A DNA stretch of 64,000 bases from Rickettsiales bacterium (GCA_021299465.1 JAJTHB010000005.1:254971-318970), one strand, 5' to 3'. Positions 26,811 to 35,254 are shown, counted from the stretch's first letter. The notes: generated from the sequence alone by a model not told the origin. A program made the numbers and translations.

Positions 26811-27324
26811 ACAGCCAGCCCATTGCCGTGTGAATGGTTTCAGTTTCTCCTAAGGCATTCGAGATGATGAGCGAAAGAAGAAACAGCAAAATCGGATAGA
26901 CAGCGGCGGCCATATCATCAAGCATCACACCGACAGCGCCTTCAACATTCTTATCAAGCCAGCGCACCGGCCAGGGTTTGATGATATCAAACGCACGAAA
27001 TAAAATAAAACCCACCAGATAGCCCTGCCATGTCAGGGGCAGTGCAGATAGCAATAGCCACTGCCCGGCCACTTCATCCACGACGATGTCCTTTGGATCA
27101 TGCTCGCAGCCGGTTTTTTCAAGAAAATGCTTACTTGCCAGCCAGCCGAGAAAAAAAATGATCCATGCGGCGATGAATAAACCGAAAGGGCCAAGTTGAT
27201 GATGGATTAAATAAGCAAAAGGCAGTGCAGCAGCCGAACCAACCGTGCCGCTGACGATTGGTGATTTGCCGCAGCCAAACCAGGTTGCAATCCACCACCA
27301 CCAATGTTTTGATGCCGCGATCAT
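26791..27324 (-). CDS. pgpA: Phosphatidylglycerophosphatase A
   Basis: GTVGS, VVDEVAGQ, FRAFDIIKPWP, GVMLDD. Confidence 0.93.
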   Translation of the reverse strand: MIAASKHWWWWIATWFGCGKSPIVSGTVGSAAALPFAYLIHHQLGPFGLFIAAWIIFFLGWLASKHFLEKTGCEHDPKDIVVDEVAGQWLLLSALPLTWQGYLVGFILFRAFDIIKPWPVRWLDKNVEGAVGVMLDDMAAAVYPILLFLLSLIISNALGETETIHTAMGWLYGDLVQ

Positions 27325-28499
27325 ATGATCGGTAACCTTATGGTTGCGACAGCCTGAGCCGCCACCCCTTCTGCGCGACCTGTAAAGCCAAGTTTCTCAG
27401 TGGTTGTTGCTTTAACGCTTACGCGCGATTCGTTAATTTTGAGGTTTTGGGCGATGCGCGTGATCATCGCCTCGCGATAGGGGGCGATCTTAGGGCGCTC
27501 ACAAATCAGCGTCAGGTCGAGATGCACAATCTCGCCGCCACGCGCTTTGACCAGCTCATAGGCATGCATTAGAAATCTCGAGGAATCCGCCCCTTTCCAT
27601 TGCAAATCATCAGGCGGGAAGTGTATGCCAATATCACCTGCGCCAATTGCGCCGAGAATGGCATCAACGAGCGCATGAAGCCCAACATCGGCATCTGAAT
27701 GTCCAACCAGAAAATGTGTATGCGGAATCTTCACACCGCATAGTTTGATCTGCTGCTTACCTACTGGTGTTTCTTCATCATGCACTTTCAAGGCGTGCAC
27801 ATCATAGCCAATTCCGGTGCGATATTCGAATGCGTGAGTAGGGGGTTGCATGGTTGTAAGATCCTGGGTGGTTGTTATTTTCTTATTTCTGACATCTCCA
27901 TCTACCGTTGCAACAGGAATCAATGCTTTTTCCATTAAGGCCGCATCATCCGTGAATTGCTCGTCCTTAAATCTTCTGTGCGCGCTTAGAAGCAGCTGGT
28001 AATCAAAACCCTGAGGTGTTTGAACTGCCATCAGCTCATCCCTGCTTAGCGTCATGCCCACGTGATCATTTTTTCTGGTTTTGATCGTATCAACAACTGG
28101 CACCACTGGAATCACCGCTTTTGAATGATCCAGTCTCTCAAGAACACGGCTGATGATTGCATGGGATACTAAAGGGCGCGCAACATCATGCACCAGCACG
28201 CGCTCAGGCATACGATGCTCAATGGATTCAAGCCCAAGCCTCACCGATTCCTGCCTGCTATTGCCGCCGACCACACATGGAAAGAGGGTAAGCCCCGCTG
28301 CCACCTTTTTATAAAGCGCATGATGCTCGCGCCTGATTACAACGCGAACACCATCAATTAATGGATGGCTCATGAACGTGCGCAGACTATGAAGCAATAC
28401 CGGCTCGCCATAAAACAGCTGGTAAGGCTTAGGAATAGGGCTTTCCAGGCGCTGTGAGGTGCCGCCGGCCACCAGAATGGCGATAGTTTTTTCTGCCAT
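27321..28499 (-). CDS. ispDF: Bifunctional IspD/IspF
   Basis: [40 protein letters not shown]. Confidence 0.96.
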
Positions 28500-28571
28500 A
28501 AAGGCCAGATTTCCTTGCTAAAACGGCTTATTTACGATAATGCCTTGCGGGACTCAAGTAAGGTTGAAAAC

Positions 28572-29606
28572 ATGCCTCCTGTCAAGATTGGTTCGATGGT
28601 GATTGATGATCCGGTTTGGCTCGCGCCAATGACCGGCGTCTCCGACCTGCCTTTTCGCAGGCTGGTTAAAAGTTTTGGCGCGGGCATGGTGGTATCGGAA
28701 ATGATCGCCTCGCGCGCAATGATCCTCGAGACGAAAAACACACTGCGCATGGCCGCATTCTCGCCAGATGAATTCCCTTTTGCCATACAGCTGGCTGGCT
28801 GCGATCCTGAGGTCATGGCCGATGCCGCCAAGCTGAATGAAGATCGCGGCGCGCATATCATCGACATTAATTTTGGCTGTCCGGTGAAAAAAGTAGTGGG
28901 TGGCATGGCTGGCTCTGCTCTCATGCGCGAAGTGCCGCTGGCCACTAAAATTCTGCAGGCAGTGGTGAAGGCGGTTAAAATCCCTGTAACACTAAAAATG
29001 CGCACCGGCTGGGATGATAGCAGCCGTAACGCGCCGCAGCTCGCTAAAATTGCTGAGGATGCCGGTATTAAGCTACTCACCGTTCATGGCCGCACGCGCT
29101 GCCAGATGTATAAAGGCCATGCCGATTGGAGTTTTGTGCGCAAGGTAAAAGAAGCCGTTTCGCTGCCGGTGATTGTAAACGGCGATATTTGCAATTTTGA
29201 CGATGTAGACCGCGCGCTTGCCGAATCCGGCGCAGATGGCGTAATGATTGGACGCGGCGCTTATGGCAGGCCATGGTTTCCAGCGCAGGTTGCGCATTAC
29301 TTAAAGACAGGTGAGCAGATTGCCCCGCCGCCACTCATAACGCAGCGCGGTATCGTCCTTAAACATTATGATGATATGCTGGATCATTACGGTGTGCAGA
29401 ATGGCATGATGGTCGCCAGAAAGCATATTGGCTGGTATTCCTCTGGCTTGTTTGATTCCTCTACCTACCGCCAACATGTAAATACGCTGATGGATGCAGA
29501 TCAGGTAAGGCAGGCGATTCGAACTTTTTATGATAGTGTTTTGGATAAACCCATCATCGTCGAAGCACCGCTGAGCGACGAAAGCGATGGCGCTCTTGCA
29601 GCCTAA
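28572..29606 (+). CDS. dusB: tRNA-dihydrouridine synthase DusB (NifR3)
   Basis: [31 protein letters not shown]. Confidence 0.96.
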
Positions 29607-29610
29607 CCCC

Positions 29611-29865
29611 ATGCCTGCCAGTGGATTGCAACATATTATCGAGGAACACCTAAAGAATTATTTTGCTGCTCACAGCAATGGCCAATTACCTGCACCAGGA
29701 CTTTACAATCGAATGCTACCGTTGTTGGAAAAACCACTGATAGAAGCAACCCTTAAGGCCTGTAACGGCAACCAGCTCAAAGCGTCAAAAATACTCGGCA
29801 TTAATCGCAACACACTACGTAAGAAAATTACTGAGCTTGCGATCCCTAAGGGTAGCGAGCCATGA
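29611..29865 (+). CDS. Stand-alone Fis-type HTH protein (NtrC C-terminal domain)
   Basis: [39 protein letters not shown]; alternative start 29587. Confidence 0.88.
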
Positions 29866-32039
29866 GGGGGGTTCGGTTTGGCTGGATCGGTAACAACATT
29901 ATTCCACTGCTGATCTTAGCTGCATTTATTTCTGGCATCATCACCTACATCACCATCGCTGGCAGCAGCGAACCGCTGCAAGTTAAGCCAAAAAGAGTCT
30001 GGGTGCTTTTAGCTGTAAACATTACATTGCTTACACTGCTGGTCGGGGCGATTAGTTTCCGCATTTATAAATTATGGGCAGCATTAAAGGCTGAATCTGC
30101 CGGCTCAAAGCTGCAAAAGAAAGTGCTGATTGTTTTCAGTGTGGTGACTATTTTGCCCACTATCATAGTCTCTATTTTCTCGGCGCTCTTTTTTAACCTT
30201 GGCATTCAAACATGGTTCAATGAGCGCGTTCAGACCGCTGTTAATGAATCGCTGGCTGTAGCCGAAGCCTATCTAGGTGAGCATAAAGAAAACATCCGTG
30301 CCGATGCCATTGCCATGGCAGGAGACTTAAGCCGGGTAGCAAGCCTTGCCATTCAGGATCCGGCAGAGTTCGATCGAATTGTTGTAACACAATCAGCCCT
30401 TCGCGTACTGACCGAAAGTATTGTGATCCAGCGCAACCGGATCATTGCGCAGGGACGATTCAGTTTTGCATTGGCCTTCGAGCATATCCCTCAAGATGCA
30501 CTTGAACGCGCCAAACGTGGAGAGGCTGTTTTAATGCCTGCTGCTGACGAGCCGGATAAAGTTCGTGCGCTGGTTCGCATCGAAGGGCTTGATGACGGTT
30601 ATTTGCTGATTGGCCGCCTCGTTGATAGCAAGGTGATCATGCACATGCAGAACGCGCAGGGTGCAGTAAGTGAATATGAGCAGCTTCAGGGGCAGCTCGA
30701 TAAGCTGCAAACCACGTTTTCTATCGTTTTTATCTCGGTAGCCTTACTCTTACTATTTGCATCGATTGGTTATGGTACGGTCTTTGCCGCGAGATTAACC
30801 AACCCTATCTCAAAACTTGCACTGGCTGCTGAGCGTGTGCGTAGCGGTGATTTTTCGGCGCGAGTGGAGGATGCGGAGCGCCGTGATGAATTTGGCATGC
30901 TGGCGCGCTCCTTCAATCGTATGACGGAACAGCTGGATGCGCAGCGCGGCGAATTAATTGAAGCCAACCGAAGGCTGGATGAAAGGCGACGTTTCTCGGA
31001 AGCCGTTTTATTCGGTGTCTCTGCTGGTGTTATTGCGCTTGATAAAGATAAAAACATCACCCTGTTCAACCGTTCGGCCAGTAATATCTTAGGATTTATC
31101 GATCTTTCAATTTCCACCGAAAATTCTATCGGCGAATTACTGCCCGGTATTCATGAAATGCTTGCCAAAGCCGAATTATCCCCGGGTGAAGTTACGGATG
31201 AAACCCTCACCCTGACTCATAAACAAAAAACCCTCTCACTCCATGCGCGCATTACGGCTGAAAAGAAAGATGATGAAATTGAAGGCTTTATTGTAACCTT
31301 TGATGATATCACCATGCTACTGTCGGCGCAGCGTACGGCTGCCTGGGCGGATGTGGCTCGGCGTGTCGCTCATGAGATTAAAAACCCGCTAACACCGATC
31401 CAGCTATCAGCTGAGCGTATCAAGAAAAAATATCTTAAATTCATCACCGAAGATCAGGAAAGTTTCATCCGCTACACCGATACCATTGCCAAGCATGTGG
31501 GCGATATCGGCAAAATGGTTGAGGAATTTGTAGGATTTGCCCGCATGCCATCGGCTGTTTTTGCCAATGAAGACGCAAGCAGCATCCTCAAAAAAGCCCT
31601 TTTTTCAGCCCAGGTTGCTAATACAGGAATTGAATTTCGCAGCTACCTGCCGAGCAAGGAAATTTCGTTATTGTGTGATGAACGCCAAATCACTCAAGTG
31701 CTCACCAATTTGCTTAAAAATGCCTGTGAATCGATAGAATCAAGGCTGGTAAGCCAGCCGAAGTCCTCCAAAGGCGTCATCATCACGCGCCTGGAAGATG
31801 ATGGTGAACAAATACTAATAAGTATTACGGATAATGGCCTTGGATTTCCTGAAGGTGAGATCTCAAAAATGATGGAGCCCTATGTTACGACACGCACCAA
31901 AGGTATGGGGCTGGGGCTATCTATTGTGAGGAAAATCATAGAGGAACACAAAGGGTTGATGAAAATTGAGAATAATCCTGATGGTGGAGCAAAAGTAACT
32001 CTTTCTTTTCCAGGGCACTGTGATATAAATGCCGCATAG
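29862..32039 (+). CDS. ntrY: Sensor histidine kinase NtrY
   Basis: TM segments, [33 protein letters not shown], HATPase. Confidence 0.95.
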
Positions 32040-32133
32040 ATAGAAGGCCGGATTTTGCTAATAGATTAGTTTTTTTATTAATCGCGCGCTGAATCCTTAA
32101 TTCTTAACCCCGAATAACAATCCTTAGGAACCC

Positions 32134-33525
32134 ATGTCCATAGATATCCTGGTTGTAGACGACGAATCCGATATTCGTGATCTCGTGTCTGATATTTTAA
32201 AAGATGCCAAATACAGCACCCGCACAGCAGCAAATAGCGACAGCGCTTTTAATGCCATAGCAGAGCGCGTGCCATCCCTTCTTATTTTGGACATATGGCT
32301 GCAAGGTAGCGAATTGGATGGGCTTGGTGTTCTGGAAATGGTTCGCAAACGCTACCCGCATTTACCAGTCGTCATGATTTCAGGACACGGCAACATCGAA
32401 ACTGCCGTCACCGCGATCAAGATGGGGGCGTATGACTTCATTGAGAAGCCATTTAAAGAAGATCGCTTGTTACTCGTTGTGGCAAGGGCATTGGAAAACG
32501 CCAGACTCAAAAATGAAAACCAGGAACTAAAAACGCGTGGCAAGCCTGAGATGGCACTAAATGGTGCTTCTGCAAGCATTCAGCAAATTCGCACCGCGAT
32601 TGAAAAAATTGCGCCGACGGCCAGTCGCGTACTGATCACTGGCGGGCCAGGCACTGGCAAAGAAATGCTTGCTCGCCTCATTCATAGTAAATCAACCCGC
32701 GCAGCCGGTAATTTTGTTATCATGAACGCTGCAGGACTAACTCAGGATCGTGTCGAAGCGGAGCTGTTTGGTGTTGAAGATACCAATCCAACCGGTGGCG
32801 CTGAGAAGCTGGGCTTATTCGAACGCGCACATAATGGCACGCTGTTCATTGACGAGGTGGCCGATATGCCGCTGGAAACACAGGGCAAAGTATTGCGCGC
32901 CCTTCAGGAACAAAGCTTTGCAAGGCTGCGGGGCAATCGTCGTGTAGAAGTTGATGTTCGCGTGATTGCCGCAAGCAATCGCGATCTTGAACACGAAATC
33001 GCCGATGGCCGTTTTCGTGAGGAACTTTATTACCGTTTAAATGTAGTACCAATTCGGATGCCATCACTTAAAGATCGCCGTGAGGATATTCCGGAGCTGT
33101 GCCGATATTTTCTGAAGCGTTCTGCTGAGATTGCCGGGCTTTCAGCGCGCGAGCTTTCTGAAGAAGCGATGGCGATGCTGCAGGCCTATCATTGGCCGGG
33201 GAATGTTCGCCAACTTCGCAACATGATGGAATGGCTGTTGATCATGACATCTGACAGCAAAGAGGCAATTGCAGCCAGTGAGCTTCCGCCTGAGATTCTA
33301 ACCTCTAATCCGGTGTTGGCGCGTCCAGAGACCAATGCAGACATTATGTCGATGGCACTGCGCGAAGCGCGTGAGTTGTTTGAGAAGCAATATCTTGCTG
33401 CCCAAATTGAGCGCTTTGGCGGTAATATCTCTAAAACCTCGGCCTTTGTCGGCATGGAGCGCTCGGCGCTTCACCGCAAGCTGAAAATGCTCGGCATCAA
33501 CGAGAGCGATGAAAAAGTAGGCTAA
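32134..33525 (+). CDS. ntrX: Response regulator NtrX
   Basis: LDIWLQGS receiver, AAA+ without GAFTGA, GMERSALHRKLK. Confidence 0.95.
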   Translation: MSIDILVVDDESDIRDLVSDILKDAKYSTRTAANSDSAFNAIAERVPSLLILDIWLQGSELDGLGVLEMVRKRYPHLPVVMISGHGNIETAVTAIKMGAYDFIEKPFKEDRLLLVVARALENARLKNENQELKTRGKPEMALNGASASIQQIRTAIEKIAPTASRVLITGGPGTGKEMLARLIHSKSTRAAGNFVIMNAAGLTQDRVEAELFGVEDTNPTGGAEKLGLFERAHNGTLFIDEVADMPLETQGKVLRALQEQSFARLRGNRRVEVDVRVIAASNRDLEHEIADGRFREELYYRLNVVPIRMPSLKDRREDIPELCRYFLKRSAEIAGLSARELSEEAMAMLQAYHWPGNVRQLRNMMEWLLIMTSDSKEAIAASELPPEILTSNPVLARPETNADIMSMALREARELFEKQYLAAQIERFGGNISKTSAFVGMERSALHRKLKMLGINESDEKVG

Positions 33526-33532
33526 AAGCCTA

Positions 33533-35254
33533 TCAGATATCCGCGAAGCAGTGTGTCTCTGCCTTGCCGCCCGGGTGGGTGAGCGCGCCTTTTTCAGCAG
33601 AGCCAACCAGCTGCGCGTATTTCCACAGCGCACCGGACTGGTAGTCCGTTTTCCTCGGCTTCCATGTTTTGCGGCGCTCAGCAAATTCCGCGTCGGTAAC
33701 ATTCACGCTGATGGTTCCTTTGGTGGCATCGATACTGATAATATCGCCATCTTTAAGCAGGCCAATCGCGCCGCCCACTGCCGCCTCTGGTCCCACATGG
33801 CCGATACAGAAGCCGCGCGTGCCGCCAGAAAAACGACCATCCGTAATGAGTGCCACTTTTTCGCCAGCGCCTTGGCCATAAAGCGCGGCGGTGGTGGAAA
33901 GCATTTCGCGCATACCGGGGCCACCTTTTGGACCCTCATAGCGAATTACCAACACATCGCCGTCGCTATAGTCGCGTTTTTCGACAGCAGCGAAGCATTC
34001 TTCCTCACTGTCAAAACAGCGCGCAGGGCCCTGATGATAAAGATTCTTCAGACCCGCGACCTTCACGATCGCCCCTTCAGGCGCGAGATTACCCTTCAGC
34101 ACCACCACGCCGCCTTCTTTTCGAAGCGGCTTATTGTGAGGATAAAACACATCTTGGCCGGTTGGGAACACGACATTCTCTAAATTTTCCGCTACCGTTT
34201 TTCCGGTTACTGTCAGGCAATCACCATTCAAGAAACCCCCGTCTAGCAGAGTTTTCATTACCACCTGAACACCGCCCGCCTGATACATTTCAAGCGCGGT
34301 ATATTTTCCGCCAGGCATCAGGTCGGCAAGGTAAGGCGTGCGTTTAAAGATTTCGCCCACTGCATGCATATCAAAATCAATACCGACCTCATGCGCCATG
34401 GCGGGCAGATGAAGTGCCGCATTGGTTGAGCCGCCGGTTGCTGCCACAATGGCTGCAGCATTTTCAAAGGCTTTACGCGTGCATATATCGCGCGGGCGCA
34501 GCTTGTTTTTAATGAGCTCCATCACTGCGCGGCCGGATTCAAATGCATACTGGTCACGCGATTCATACGGCGCGGGCGCGCCTGCAGAGCCGGGCAGGGC
34601 AAGGCCAATCGCTTCGGAAACACAGGCCATGGTGTTAGCAGTAAACTGCCCGCCGCACGAACCACCGGATGGACAAGCGACCTGTTCCAGCTCTTTCAGC
34701 TCCTCTTCGCTCATACCGCCTGCGGAATGTTTGCCGACACCTTCGAACACATCCACCACGGTTACGTTCTTGCCCTTATATTTACCGGGCAGGATGGTGC
34801 CGCCATACATAAACACGCTGGGCACATTCAGGCGCAGCATCGCCATCATCAGCCCGGGCAGAGATTTGTCGCAGCCCGCTAGCCCAACCAACGCATCATA
34901 ACTATGGCCGCGCATGGTCAGCTCCACGGAATCGGTAATCACATCGCGCGAAACCAGCGAGGACTTCATACCCTGATGCCCCATCGCGATGCCGTCGGTG
35001 ACGGTGATGGTGGTGAATTCGCGCGGCGTGCCGCCCATGCTCGCAACACCTTTTTTTACCACCTGCGCTTGACGCGCTAGTGTGATGTTGCAGGGAGCGG
35101 CTTCGTTCCATGTTGTTGCCACGCCCACCAGTGGCGCGTGAATGCCGGCTTCAGTAATGCCCATGGCGTAAAGATAAGAACGATGTGGCGCTCGCTCAGG
35201 CCCTTCAGTGACGTGGCGGGAGGGAAGGCGAGACTTACCGTAAGTCTTGGTCAT
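33533..35254 (-). CDS. ilvD: Dihydroxy-acid dehydratase
   Basis: GCDKSLPG, TANTM, GGSTN, GPKGGPGMREM, TDGRFSGG. Confidence 0.97.
   Translation of the reverse strand: MTKTYGKSRLPSRHVTEGPERAPHRSYLYAMGITEAGIHAPLVGVATTWNEAAPCNITLARQAQVVKKGVASMGGTPREFTTITVTDGIAMGHQGMKSSLVSRDVITDSVELTMRGHSYDALVGLAGCDKSLPGLMMAMLRLNVPSVFMYGGTILPGKYKGKNVTVVDVFEGVGKHSAGGMSEEELKELEQVACPSGGSCGGQFTANTMACVSEAIGLALPGSAGAPAPYESRDQYAFESGRAVMELIKNKLRPRDICTRKAFENAAAIVAATGGSTNAALHLPAMAHEVGIDFDMHAVGEIFKRTPYLADLMPGGKYTALEMYQAGGVQVVMKTLLDGGFLNGDCLTVTGKTVAENLENVVFPTGQDVFYPHNKPLRKEGGVVVLKGNLAPEGAIVKVAGLKNLYHQGPARCFDSEEECFAAVEKRDYSDGDVLVIRYEGPKGGPGMREMLSTTAALYGQGAGEKVALITDGRFSGGTRGFCIGHVGPEAAVGGAIGLLKDGDIISIDATKGTISVNVTDAEFAERRKTWKPRKTDYQSGALWKYAQLVGSAEKGALTHPGGKAETHCFADI

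Follow-up and report, generated by a model that had tools for sequence, protein, structure and literature searches.

A stand-alone NtrC DNA-binding domain between dusB and ntrY in a freshwater Rickettsiales bacterium: a recurrent Fis-type protein derived from NtrC by deletion

The described systems closest to the locus reported here are the gamma-type Fis proteins and the alphaproteobacterial nitrogen regulator NtrC (NR-I), which are connected by the proposal that the C-terminal DNA-binding domain of NtrC is the ancestor of Fis (Morett and Bork 1998, as described in the accessible part of PMC7962754). In Caulobacter, the NtrC motif obtained by chromatin immunoprecipitation sequencing resembles the E. 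coli Fis and NtrC motifs, according to the accessible part of the report (10.1101/2023.06.06.543975). Here we analysed 64,000 nucleotides of a Rickettsiales bacterium (GCA_021299465.1 JAJTHB010000005.1:254971-318970; this whole stretch is called the window and positions are counted from its first letter), in which a small open reading frame (ORF) of 84 amino acids (aa), located at 29611..29865 on the + strand between dusB and ntrY, encodes a stand-alone NtrC C-terminal DNA-binding domain (HTH_8, 5e-14). The locus represents a recurrent variant of Fis-type proteins that descend from NtrC. How it arose is clear: ntrB and most of ntrC were deleted in place. A literature search turned up no account of a free NtrC domain or of Fis-like genes in Alphaproteobacteria, with most subscription journals lying outside that search and unpublished status therefore unproven.

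Like gamma-type Fis (E. coli, P. aeruginosa; NF001659; PDB 1ETY, 3IV5, 6M10), the small ORF stands directly behind dusB, carries HTH_8 and the common motif GNQxxA..LGINRxTLRKK, and has the same four-helix core; it may also form a homodimer, as predicted for two copies. It differs in having no N-terminal arm of about 26 residues, in falling outside the Fis clade, in preceding ntrY-ntrX and in having a separate, much younger origin. Compared with alphaproteobacterial NtrC, the ORF lacks the receiver, the AAA+ domain and the NtrB partner, so its product should be neither controlled by phosphorylation nor able to activate sigma-54. Other Fis genes likewise lie behind dusB, which was found upstream of gamma-type Fis in 29 of 30 loci and upstream of short Fis proteins of 77-93 aa in 11 of 12.

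The assignment of the small ORF to NtrC, already made in an earlier note drawn from the sequence alone, is confirmed. Pfam HTH_8 (PF02954) matches at 52.2 bits (cut-off 22, E 5e-14; residues 44-83 of a 92-aa form), and from the NtrC model TIGR01818 only positions 391-463 of 463 are covered (52.2 bits, cut-off 558.6), leaving the ORF without a receiver and without a sigma-54 AAA+ domain with GAFTGA. Relatives of the same family possess NtrC proteins of 484-499 aa that carry both GAFTGA and Walker A, and their C-termini are 60-69% identical to the small ORF. Considering this identity, the single clade formed with family NtrC (below) and the same position before ntrY, the ORF is orthologous to the C-terminal domain of the family's NtrC. 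Its best NCBIfam match is the short Fis-family regulator NF002517 (77 positions, 1.4e-17), where its 64 bits stay under the cut-off of 122, and likewise the score on gamma-type Fis NF001659 (58.4 bits) does not reach the cut-off of 99.

The junctions on both sides of the ORF are tight, as the earlier note had read them: the dusB stop TAA (29604-29606) is followed by 'cccc' and then by ATG 29611, giving a spacer of 4 nt on the same strand, and the ORF stop TGA (29863-29865) overlaps the ntrY start ATG (29862-29864) as ATGA. An upstream in-frame ATG at 29587 would yield a 92-aa form (29587..29865) overlapping dusB by 20 nt. The 84-aa form is the likelier one, because two congeners have their start at the homologous position (MPASGL vs MPTQGL) and because the database record of the window's own protein has 84 aa.

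To place this gene in its genome we searched the assembly from which the window derives (G000; 1.95 Mb in 36 contigs, 98.6% complete). No remnant of ntrB, of the NtrC receiver or of the NtrC AAA+ domain was found at the locus or elsewhere, and there is no cognate ntrB adjacent to the ORF. The NtrC model returned nothing over its cut-off of 558.6 in the genome, the best hit being NtrX with 383 bits. With a relative's NtrC as tblastn query, residues 401-476 match at this locus with 65.8% identity; otherwise family NtrB and NtrC queries gave generic kinase similarity of at most 29% identity in this genome, and no NtrB orthologue. The absence of ntrB and of the two NtrC domains, claimed earlier for the locus, therefore extends to the genome-wide searches.

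All 44 family genomes were searched for the gene, with a match in 40, and the state of the locus was assigned from how long the open frame is. Nineteen genomes carry a short form (87-137 aa), 18 a full-length gene, one a frame of 358 aa (G018), one a split gene (G343) and one a gene cut by a contig end (G017), while four had no match; gene maps confirmed 13 of the short forms, and the remaining six are classed by frame length alone. The short form occurs in four of four genomes of the window's genus, in four of four of genus g9 and in eight of nine of genus g12 (the ninth without match), and furthermore in G008, G005 and G339. The ancestral arrangement is visible in the family itself: ten genomes in which all four neighbours could be seen have the order ispDF/dusB-ntrB-ntrC-ntrY-ntrX, and in several full-form relatives, e.g., G004, the ntrC stop overlaps the ntrY start. 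Together with the 60-69% identity, these relatives bear out the origin by deletion that had been proposed for the locus. The synteny check suggested there likewise found dusB-HTH-ntrY (HTH, helix-turn-helix) in congeners and beyond, with full ntrBC in 18 of the 44 genomes.

A clean deletion is seen in G339, a short-form genome whose congeners G021 and G345 have the full-length gene. In the DNA alignment of G339 with G021, homology in dusB extends to about 90 nt before the dusB end and resumes in ntrC from about codon 421 on, with nothing alignable between; dusB and the ORF now meet in a new stop/start overlap, TGATG. Spacers between dusB and the short ORF vary among genomes (4 nt in G000, 34 in G002 and G003, 42 in G001, 8 in G023 and a 1-nt overlap in G339), and the retained N-termini, unalignable among clades, all lie in the linker that follows the AAA+ lid, starting 5-20 residues ahead of helix A. 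The earlier note had held that its reading would fail if close relatives carried full ntrBC and the fragment had variable endpoints or a dN/dS near 1. Family relatives do carry full ntrBC, but the congeners of the window's genome share the fragment, the endpoints all lie within a single inter-domain linker, and dN/dS values are far from 1, on the low side.

An assembly deletion, another concern raised, could be dismissed. The stretch occurs in 20 DNA runs that come from 11 studies, all on metagenomes of freshwater or lakes, and contigs from other studies span both junctions with 0 differences (X12, 29164-29883; X6, 28803-29655 and 29633-29954), which means that the deletion is not an artefact.

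The short ORF is under purifying selection, in agreement with the previous suggestion of selection rather than decay. Nei-Gojobori estimates over the 36 pairs among nine short genes gave proportions of synonymous differences (pS) of 0.57-0.94 and of nonsynonymous differences (pN) of 0.16-0.40 in 35 pairs; the near-identical pair G002/G003 has a synonymous proportion of 0.034. In the 13 pairs with a correctable synonymous distance, omega (dN/dS) was 0.14-0.43. The pattern also holds within clades that share a truncation (G000-G002, pN 0.25 and pS 0.82; G023-G011, pN 0.16 and pS 0.81). Moreover, 48 alignment columns show a conservation of at least 80% among 15 full NtrC proteins; in 40 of these columns the residue persists at 80% or more among 12 short forms, and clear relaxation is limited to two. 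Selection is thus indicated by synonymous sites that are saturated while the frame stays open, as it does in all 19 short-form genomes, and while the columns conserved in NtrC are kept.

The reduction of ntrC to its last domain happened more than once. On a tree of NtrY plus NtrX proteins (30 rows, 1199 columns, quick LG+G4), which represents two proteins of this locus and not whole genomes, short forms occupy separate places with good support: the window's genus (100) and g9 (100) form their own groups, the short-form G014 stands beside the full-form G010 (91), and G005/G008 group with the full-form G013 and with G017 (99). Within the family the short/full label requires at least four changes, including one inside a genus. 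Since lost ntrB, receiver and AAA+ sequences cannot regrow, independent deletions are the best reading of these changes. When the nine short-form rows were constrained to one clade, the cost was 348.7 log-likelihood units (p-AU 1.9e-33) in an approximately unbiased (AU) test for which the group was named after the tree had been seen. A larger quick tree with six genomes added places G339 among full-form genomes, with a minimum of six changes overall. The single birth envisaged by the earlier note consequently has to be given up in favour of an event that recurs within the family and is widespread elsewhere.

How these genes relate to Fis was addressed with a tree of the domain itself (78 columns, 136 rows), in which all short and full forms of the family make one clade (SH-aLRT 94), gamma/beta Fis a separate clade (97) and the short forms of Rickettsiaceae and Holosporaceae another (95), with the backbone between them unresolved. 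The single family clade implies that each short gene derives from the family's own ntrC, and the small ORF is no member of the Fis clade; uniting Fis and the window's genus in one clade costs 68.3 log-likelihood units (p-AU 0.035). Grouping with its own family's NtrC and apart from gamma/beta Fis, the window's gene repeats the proposed origin of Fis independently, in an event that has recurred, and these sequence comparisons do not make it close kin of the Fis donor. From the two options offered earlier, the independent replay is therefore the one retained, and the domain trees lend no support to a relative of the donor arrangement.

Beyond the family, 627 proteins of 50-161 aa match the small ORF, many of them 82-101 aa long and from alphaproteobacterial or 'Rickettsiales' metagenome bins. 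We fetched 80 public loci, of which 79 were scored. The order dusB-short HTH-ntrY was present in 31 of them (12 Rickettsiaceae, six other Rickettsiales, four Holosporaceae and nine unlabelled by family or order), including Candidatus Megaera polyxenophila (NZ_CP104166.1) and Ca. M. venefica among the Rickettsiaceae; 11 loci had dusB-short HTH without ntrY downstream, one had short HTH-ntrY without dusB, and seven the full ntrB-ntrC-ntrY order, e.g., Tsuneonella flava and a SAR116 genome. The Rickettsiaceae and Holosporaceae dusB-short HTH-ntrY-ntrX loci agree with the window in gene order and domain extent (80-90 aa), yet their small proteins are only 45-58% identical to the window's ORF and form the separate clade named above, so that they come from other truncation events. 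Their database names are generic ('helix-turn-helix domain-containing protein', 'GlnG'). A further parallel is provided by the short Fis proteins of NF002517 (77-81 aa; L173-L181 and L188, Pseudomonadota), which are presumably betaproteobacterial and match the window's ORF in both length and N-terminal boundary, the domain model starting at their residue 1-2; they differ in falling in another clade, and the ORF remains under the cut-off of their model.

By sequence, the small ORF aligns to E. coli Fis residues 27-94 (1.2e-10) and to P. aeruginosa Fis (3.7e-13), an extent that corresponds to the Fis core without its N-terminal arm. An AlphaFold2 model built with 46 sequences (pLDDT 87.3) has helices at 4-20, 31-50, 55-62 and 66-75, i.e., the four-helix core of Fis with a C-terminal helix-turn-helix. 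The top Foldseek matches in the PDB are Fis chains (TM 0.76-0.80, rmsd 1.1-2.2 A), with the shorter NtrC1 and NtrC4 DNA-binding domains ranking behind them. The Fis arm, about 26 residues before helix A, has no counterpart, as helix A of the model begins at residue 4; this arm has a role in the stimulation of invertases. Prediction with two copies scored 0.60 against 0.00 for the best of three controls, a result that may reflect likeness only, considering that Fis dimers are already solved and could be in the model's memory. The two-copy runs agree in at least 93% of contacts with a partner pLDDT of at least 76, and the mark used for pairing was attained by 20 of 30 proteins whose solved structures are pairs, as against one of 23 solved as single chains. 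The ORF residues are identical at the positions aligned with Fis N73, Q74, N84, R85, T87, R89 and K90, which we take to be the residues that contact DNA.

Taken together, we consider it probable that the 84-aa ORF is a real, selected protein-coding gene, made by an in-place deletion in ntrBC of a kind that has recurred, and that its product acts as a passive DNA-binding dimer. The origin by deletion, its recurrence, the purifying selection and the Fis-core fold are the firm part of this statement. The deletion took out ntrB and about the first 400 codons of ntrC, breaking the gene in the linker ahead of the C-terminal domain, and the ORF now has its own new start just after dusB. The product keeps the dimerisation helices and the helix-turn-helix of NtrC, equivalent to the Fis core without the N-terminal arm, and would most likely still bind NtrC/Fis-type DNA sites as a homodimer. 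Lacking the AAA+ domain, it could not remodel the sigma-54 polymerase, and this inability to activate suggests a passive repressor or an architectural, nucleoid-type protein; either function is proposed from the domain content. The small protein is probably made together with dusB and ntrYX from one transcript by translational coupling. The repeated reduction in this family and in other Alphaproteobacteria with small genomes suggests that selection favours retaining the DNA-binding module once NtrBC signalling has been given up.

Several observations weigh against this interpretation. When domain distance is divided by NtrY+NtrX distance, the median is 0.99 for the 90 pairs of full forms, and the quotient reaches 1.45-2.09 in six of seven within-genus short pairs (0.65 for the near-identical G002/G003). 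The free domain thus evolves about 1.5-2 times faster relative to NtrY+NtrX than it does in full NtrC, and the cause could be partly relaxed selection instead of a new role. ATG 29611 is not preceded by an evident Shine-Dalgarno sequence, and translation of the ORF hence depends on the assumed coupling. No RNA run containing the stretch was among 22 runs listed. In another family of the order, G037 (L191:820-3708, - strand) has ntrY 43 nt past dusB with no NtrC remnant or HTH in between, showing that the module is dispensable in some lineages. A DNA target was not found: upstream of glnB, no sigma-54 promoter or NtrC-type site reached nine of 11 consensus positions in 21 family genomes. Added to these are the two limits on the recurrence analysis stated above, namely a tree of two proteins from the locus and a tested group named in hindsight.

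Among other explanations, the most serious is that the small protein serves as a dedicated accessory of NtrY/NtrX, sharing NtrX sites or pairing with the NtrX DNA-binding domain, its retention being tied to ntrYX. Every short-form gene map has the small gene directly upstream of, or near, ntrY-ntrX, even where dusB is not adjacent (G014, G008, G005, G030, G033, G038, G026 and G029), and the 31 public loci with ntrY, the single public locus with ntrY and no dusB, and the stop/start overlap with ntrY, inherited from ntrC, fit the same idea. This linkage, however, is simply the ancestral gene order, and it is broken in both directions: the 11 public loci without ntrY downstream and G039, where dusB-short HTH is followed by a different kinase, have the small gene apart from ntrY, and G037 as well as G034 and G032, in which no small gene was present in the 1.2-1.4 kb examined upstream, keep ntrYX alone. 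We therefore regard an accessory role as unlikely, if still worth considering. Less probable again is a purely cis-acting role of the retained ntrC 3' end, e.g., as a promoter, in loading of ribosomes or in ntrY coupling, with the peptide being irrelevant. The overlap of the ORF stop with the ntrY start here and in many relatives would suit such a role, as would the fact that no separate sigma-70-like promoter was found on the + strand between dusB and ntrY, where promoter counts are at chance level, but conservation of amino acids is concentrated in the helix-turn-helix and the dimer helices while synonymous sites are saturated, and G037 places ntrY directly behind dusB without the segment. 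In G014 and G146, furthermore, about 850 nt separate the short ORF from ntrY; that the ORF of G014 is intact with pyrG upstream and an inserted gene pair downstream argues against retention merely for ntrY coupling.

Two further possibilities were considered and rejected. A decaying remnant or pseudogene fragment, or else an artefact, might be expected from a deletion in a 36-contig assembly, but the frame is open in all 19 short forms and is kept across a genus that differs at most synonymous sites, and contigs from independent runs (X12, X6) bridge both junctions without a difference, making this very improbable. Replacement of ntrBC by a horizontally acquired beta/gamma fis, for which the scores on both NCBIfam Fis models and the dusB gene upstream could be cited, is the least credible of all, with both scores under their cut-offs, 60-69% identity to the C-termini of the family's own NtrC, a placement in the family clade apart from Fis and an AU test against joining the two, within the limit of 78 columns for the domain tree. 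The preferred explanation of a selected, passive DNA-binding dimer left behind by ntrBC deletion thus stands ahead of these four.

A wider and clearly more speculative proposal is that several alphaproteobacterial lineages (the window's freshwater family, Rickettsiaceae and Holosporaceae) independently and repeatedly made their own Fis by deleting ntrB and the receiver and AAA+ parts of ntrC in place, which left a dusB-linked dimeric core that took on a global or architectural DNA-binding role; we offer this tentatively. If true, a family with full, receiver-less, HTH-only and fully deleted states would make the 1998 hypothesis on the origin of Fis directly testable, and it would suggest that a simple deletion of this kind could have produced beta/gamma Fis as well, with no special transfer event needed. 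In either case, full ntrBC, NtrC without receiver and GAFTGA, the free domain and complete loss together constitute a comparative system for the release of a regulatory domain from a signalling protein, which also raises the questions of what role the freed domain takes and what becomes of nitrogen control. Small 'HTH domain-containing' genes before ntrY in Rickettsiaceae and Holosporaceae accordingly deserve a name.

The neighbouring genes of the window conform to the family order. The left border of the locus is conserved and formed by ispDF (fused IspD/IspF; 27321..28499, - strand), an ORF that is divergent from dusB and adjoins it in relatives too. For dusB (nifR3; tRNA dihydrouridine synthase B; 28515..29606, + strand; TIGR00737 400 bits, cut-off 293.3; Pfam Dus 5.4e-101) the start may be TTG 28515 (363 aa) or ATG 28572; the earlier note identified the gene correctly and began it at 28572, which is an internal ATG in a frame that opens at TTG 28515. 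Downstream of the small ORF follow the sensor kinase gene ntrY (29862..32039, + strand; NtrY_N 8e-36, HAMP, PAS, HisKA and HATPase_c in Pfam) and the response regulator gene ntrX (32134..33525, + strand; receiver, AAA+ and HTH_8; NF051870 682.9 bits, cut-off 600). A promoter and terminator scan of 28300-33800 gave counts at chance level, and on the + strand between dusB and ntrY it returned only one terminator-like hairpin, at chance level and inside dusB.

The fate of nitrogen control is of interest because glnB-glnA, glnD and amtB are retained in the window's genome without NtrBC, along with rpoN, and because glnB (39 of 41 genomes) and glnA (40 of 41) are kept in nearly all of the family, with amtB in 36 of 44. 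Loss of nitrogen genes was tried as a correlate of the short form and rejected, glnB, glnA and amtB showing no pattern by state. SAR11 is described as lacking NtrBC and retaining NtrYX (accessible part of PMC3870248). Four proteins with a sigma-54 activator domain are encoded in the genome, namely FlbD, NtrX and two orphan response regulators of 456 and 486 aa (contigs C17, C21 and C8 of G000, and window 32134-33525). FlbD, which scores 742 bits on its own model and adjoins fliH/flhA-like genes, is the only one of the four with GAFTGA when the sequences are read; NtrX and both orphans are without it. The glnB upstream regions of the family genomes did not align, and at seven of 11 consensus positions they hold scattered matches only, among them TGGATTTGTGGTTGCA in G000, G002 and G003, all three of which lack NtrC. 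This sigma-54-like -24/-12 element agrees with eight of 11 consensus positions, and in G000 it lies 45 nt upstream of glnB (glnB at C36:6532-6849, outside the window). The full-form genomes G004 and G007 have a similar TTGCA box before glnB, with no GG at -24.

Some relatives show further forms of the locus. In G018 (L057:2490-3551, - strand), an NtrC of 353 aa without receiver follows directly after dusB, also without ntrB. Its GAFTGA is missing and its Walker A is altered (GESGSGKT), yet Sigma54_activat, the AAA lid and HTH_8 are kept, which gives it the look of a stage between full NtrC and the free HTH. In G343 (L215:2379-3895, + strand), a frame change in the linker divides ntrC into a receiver+AAA+ frame of 425 aa and an HTH frame of 61 aa, which may be an incipient split or a sequencing error, the latter considering that the assembly is 79% complete. 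G015, at first taken as a gene-less case, was dropped, as its ntrY is a fragment within about 400 nt of the end of the sequence fetched, possibly a contig end. In four Holosporaceae-like loci (L067, L069, L070 and L079), a receiver-containing protein of 391 aa (216 aa and contig-cut in L079) with weak similarity to the NtrX receiver lies some 2.4-2.5 kb upstream of dusB and is encoded on the opposite strand. In G014 (L036:5926-7010), the intact short HTH gene stands behind pyrG instead of dusB, and the pair inserted between it and ntrY consists of an antitoxin-like gene (83 aa) and a PIN-like gene (132 aa). The spacer between pyrG and the HTH gene is made up of 61 nt of the heptamer repeats GGCATTA/GGGGTTA/GGGATTA.

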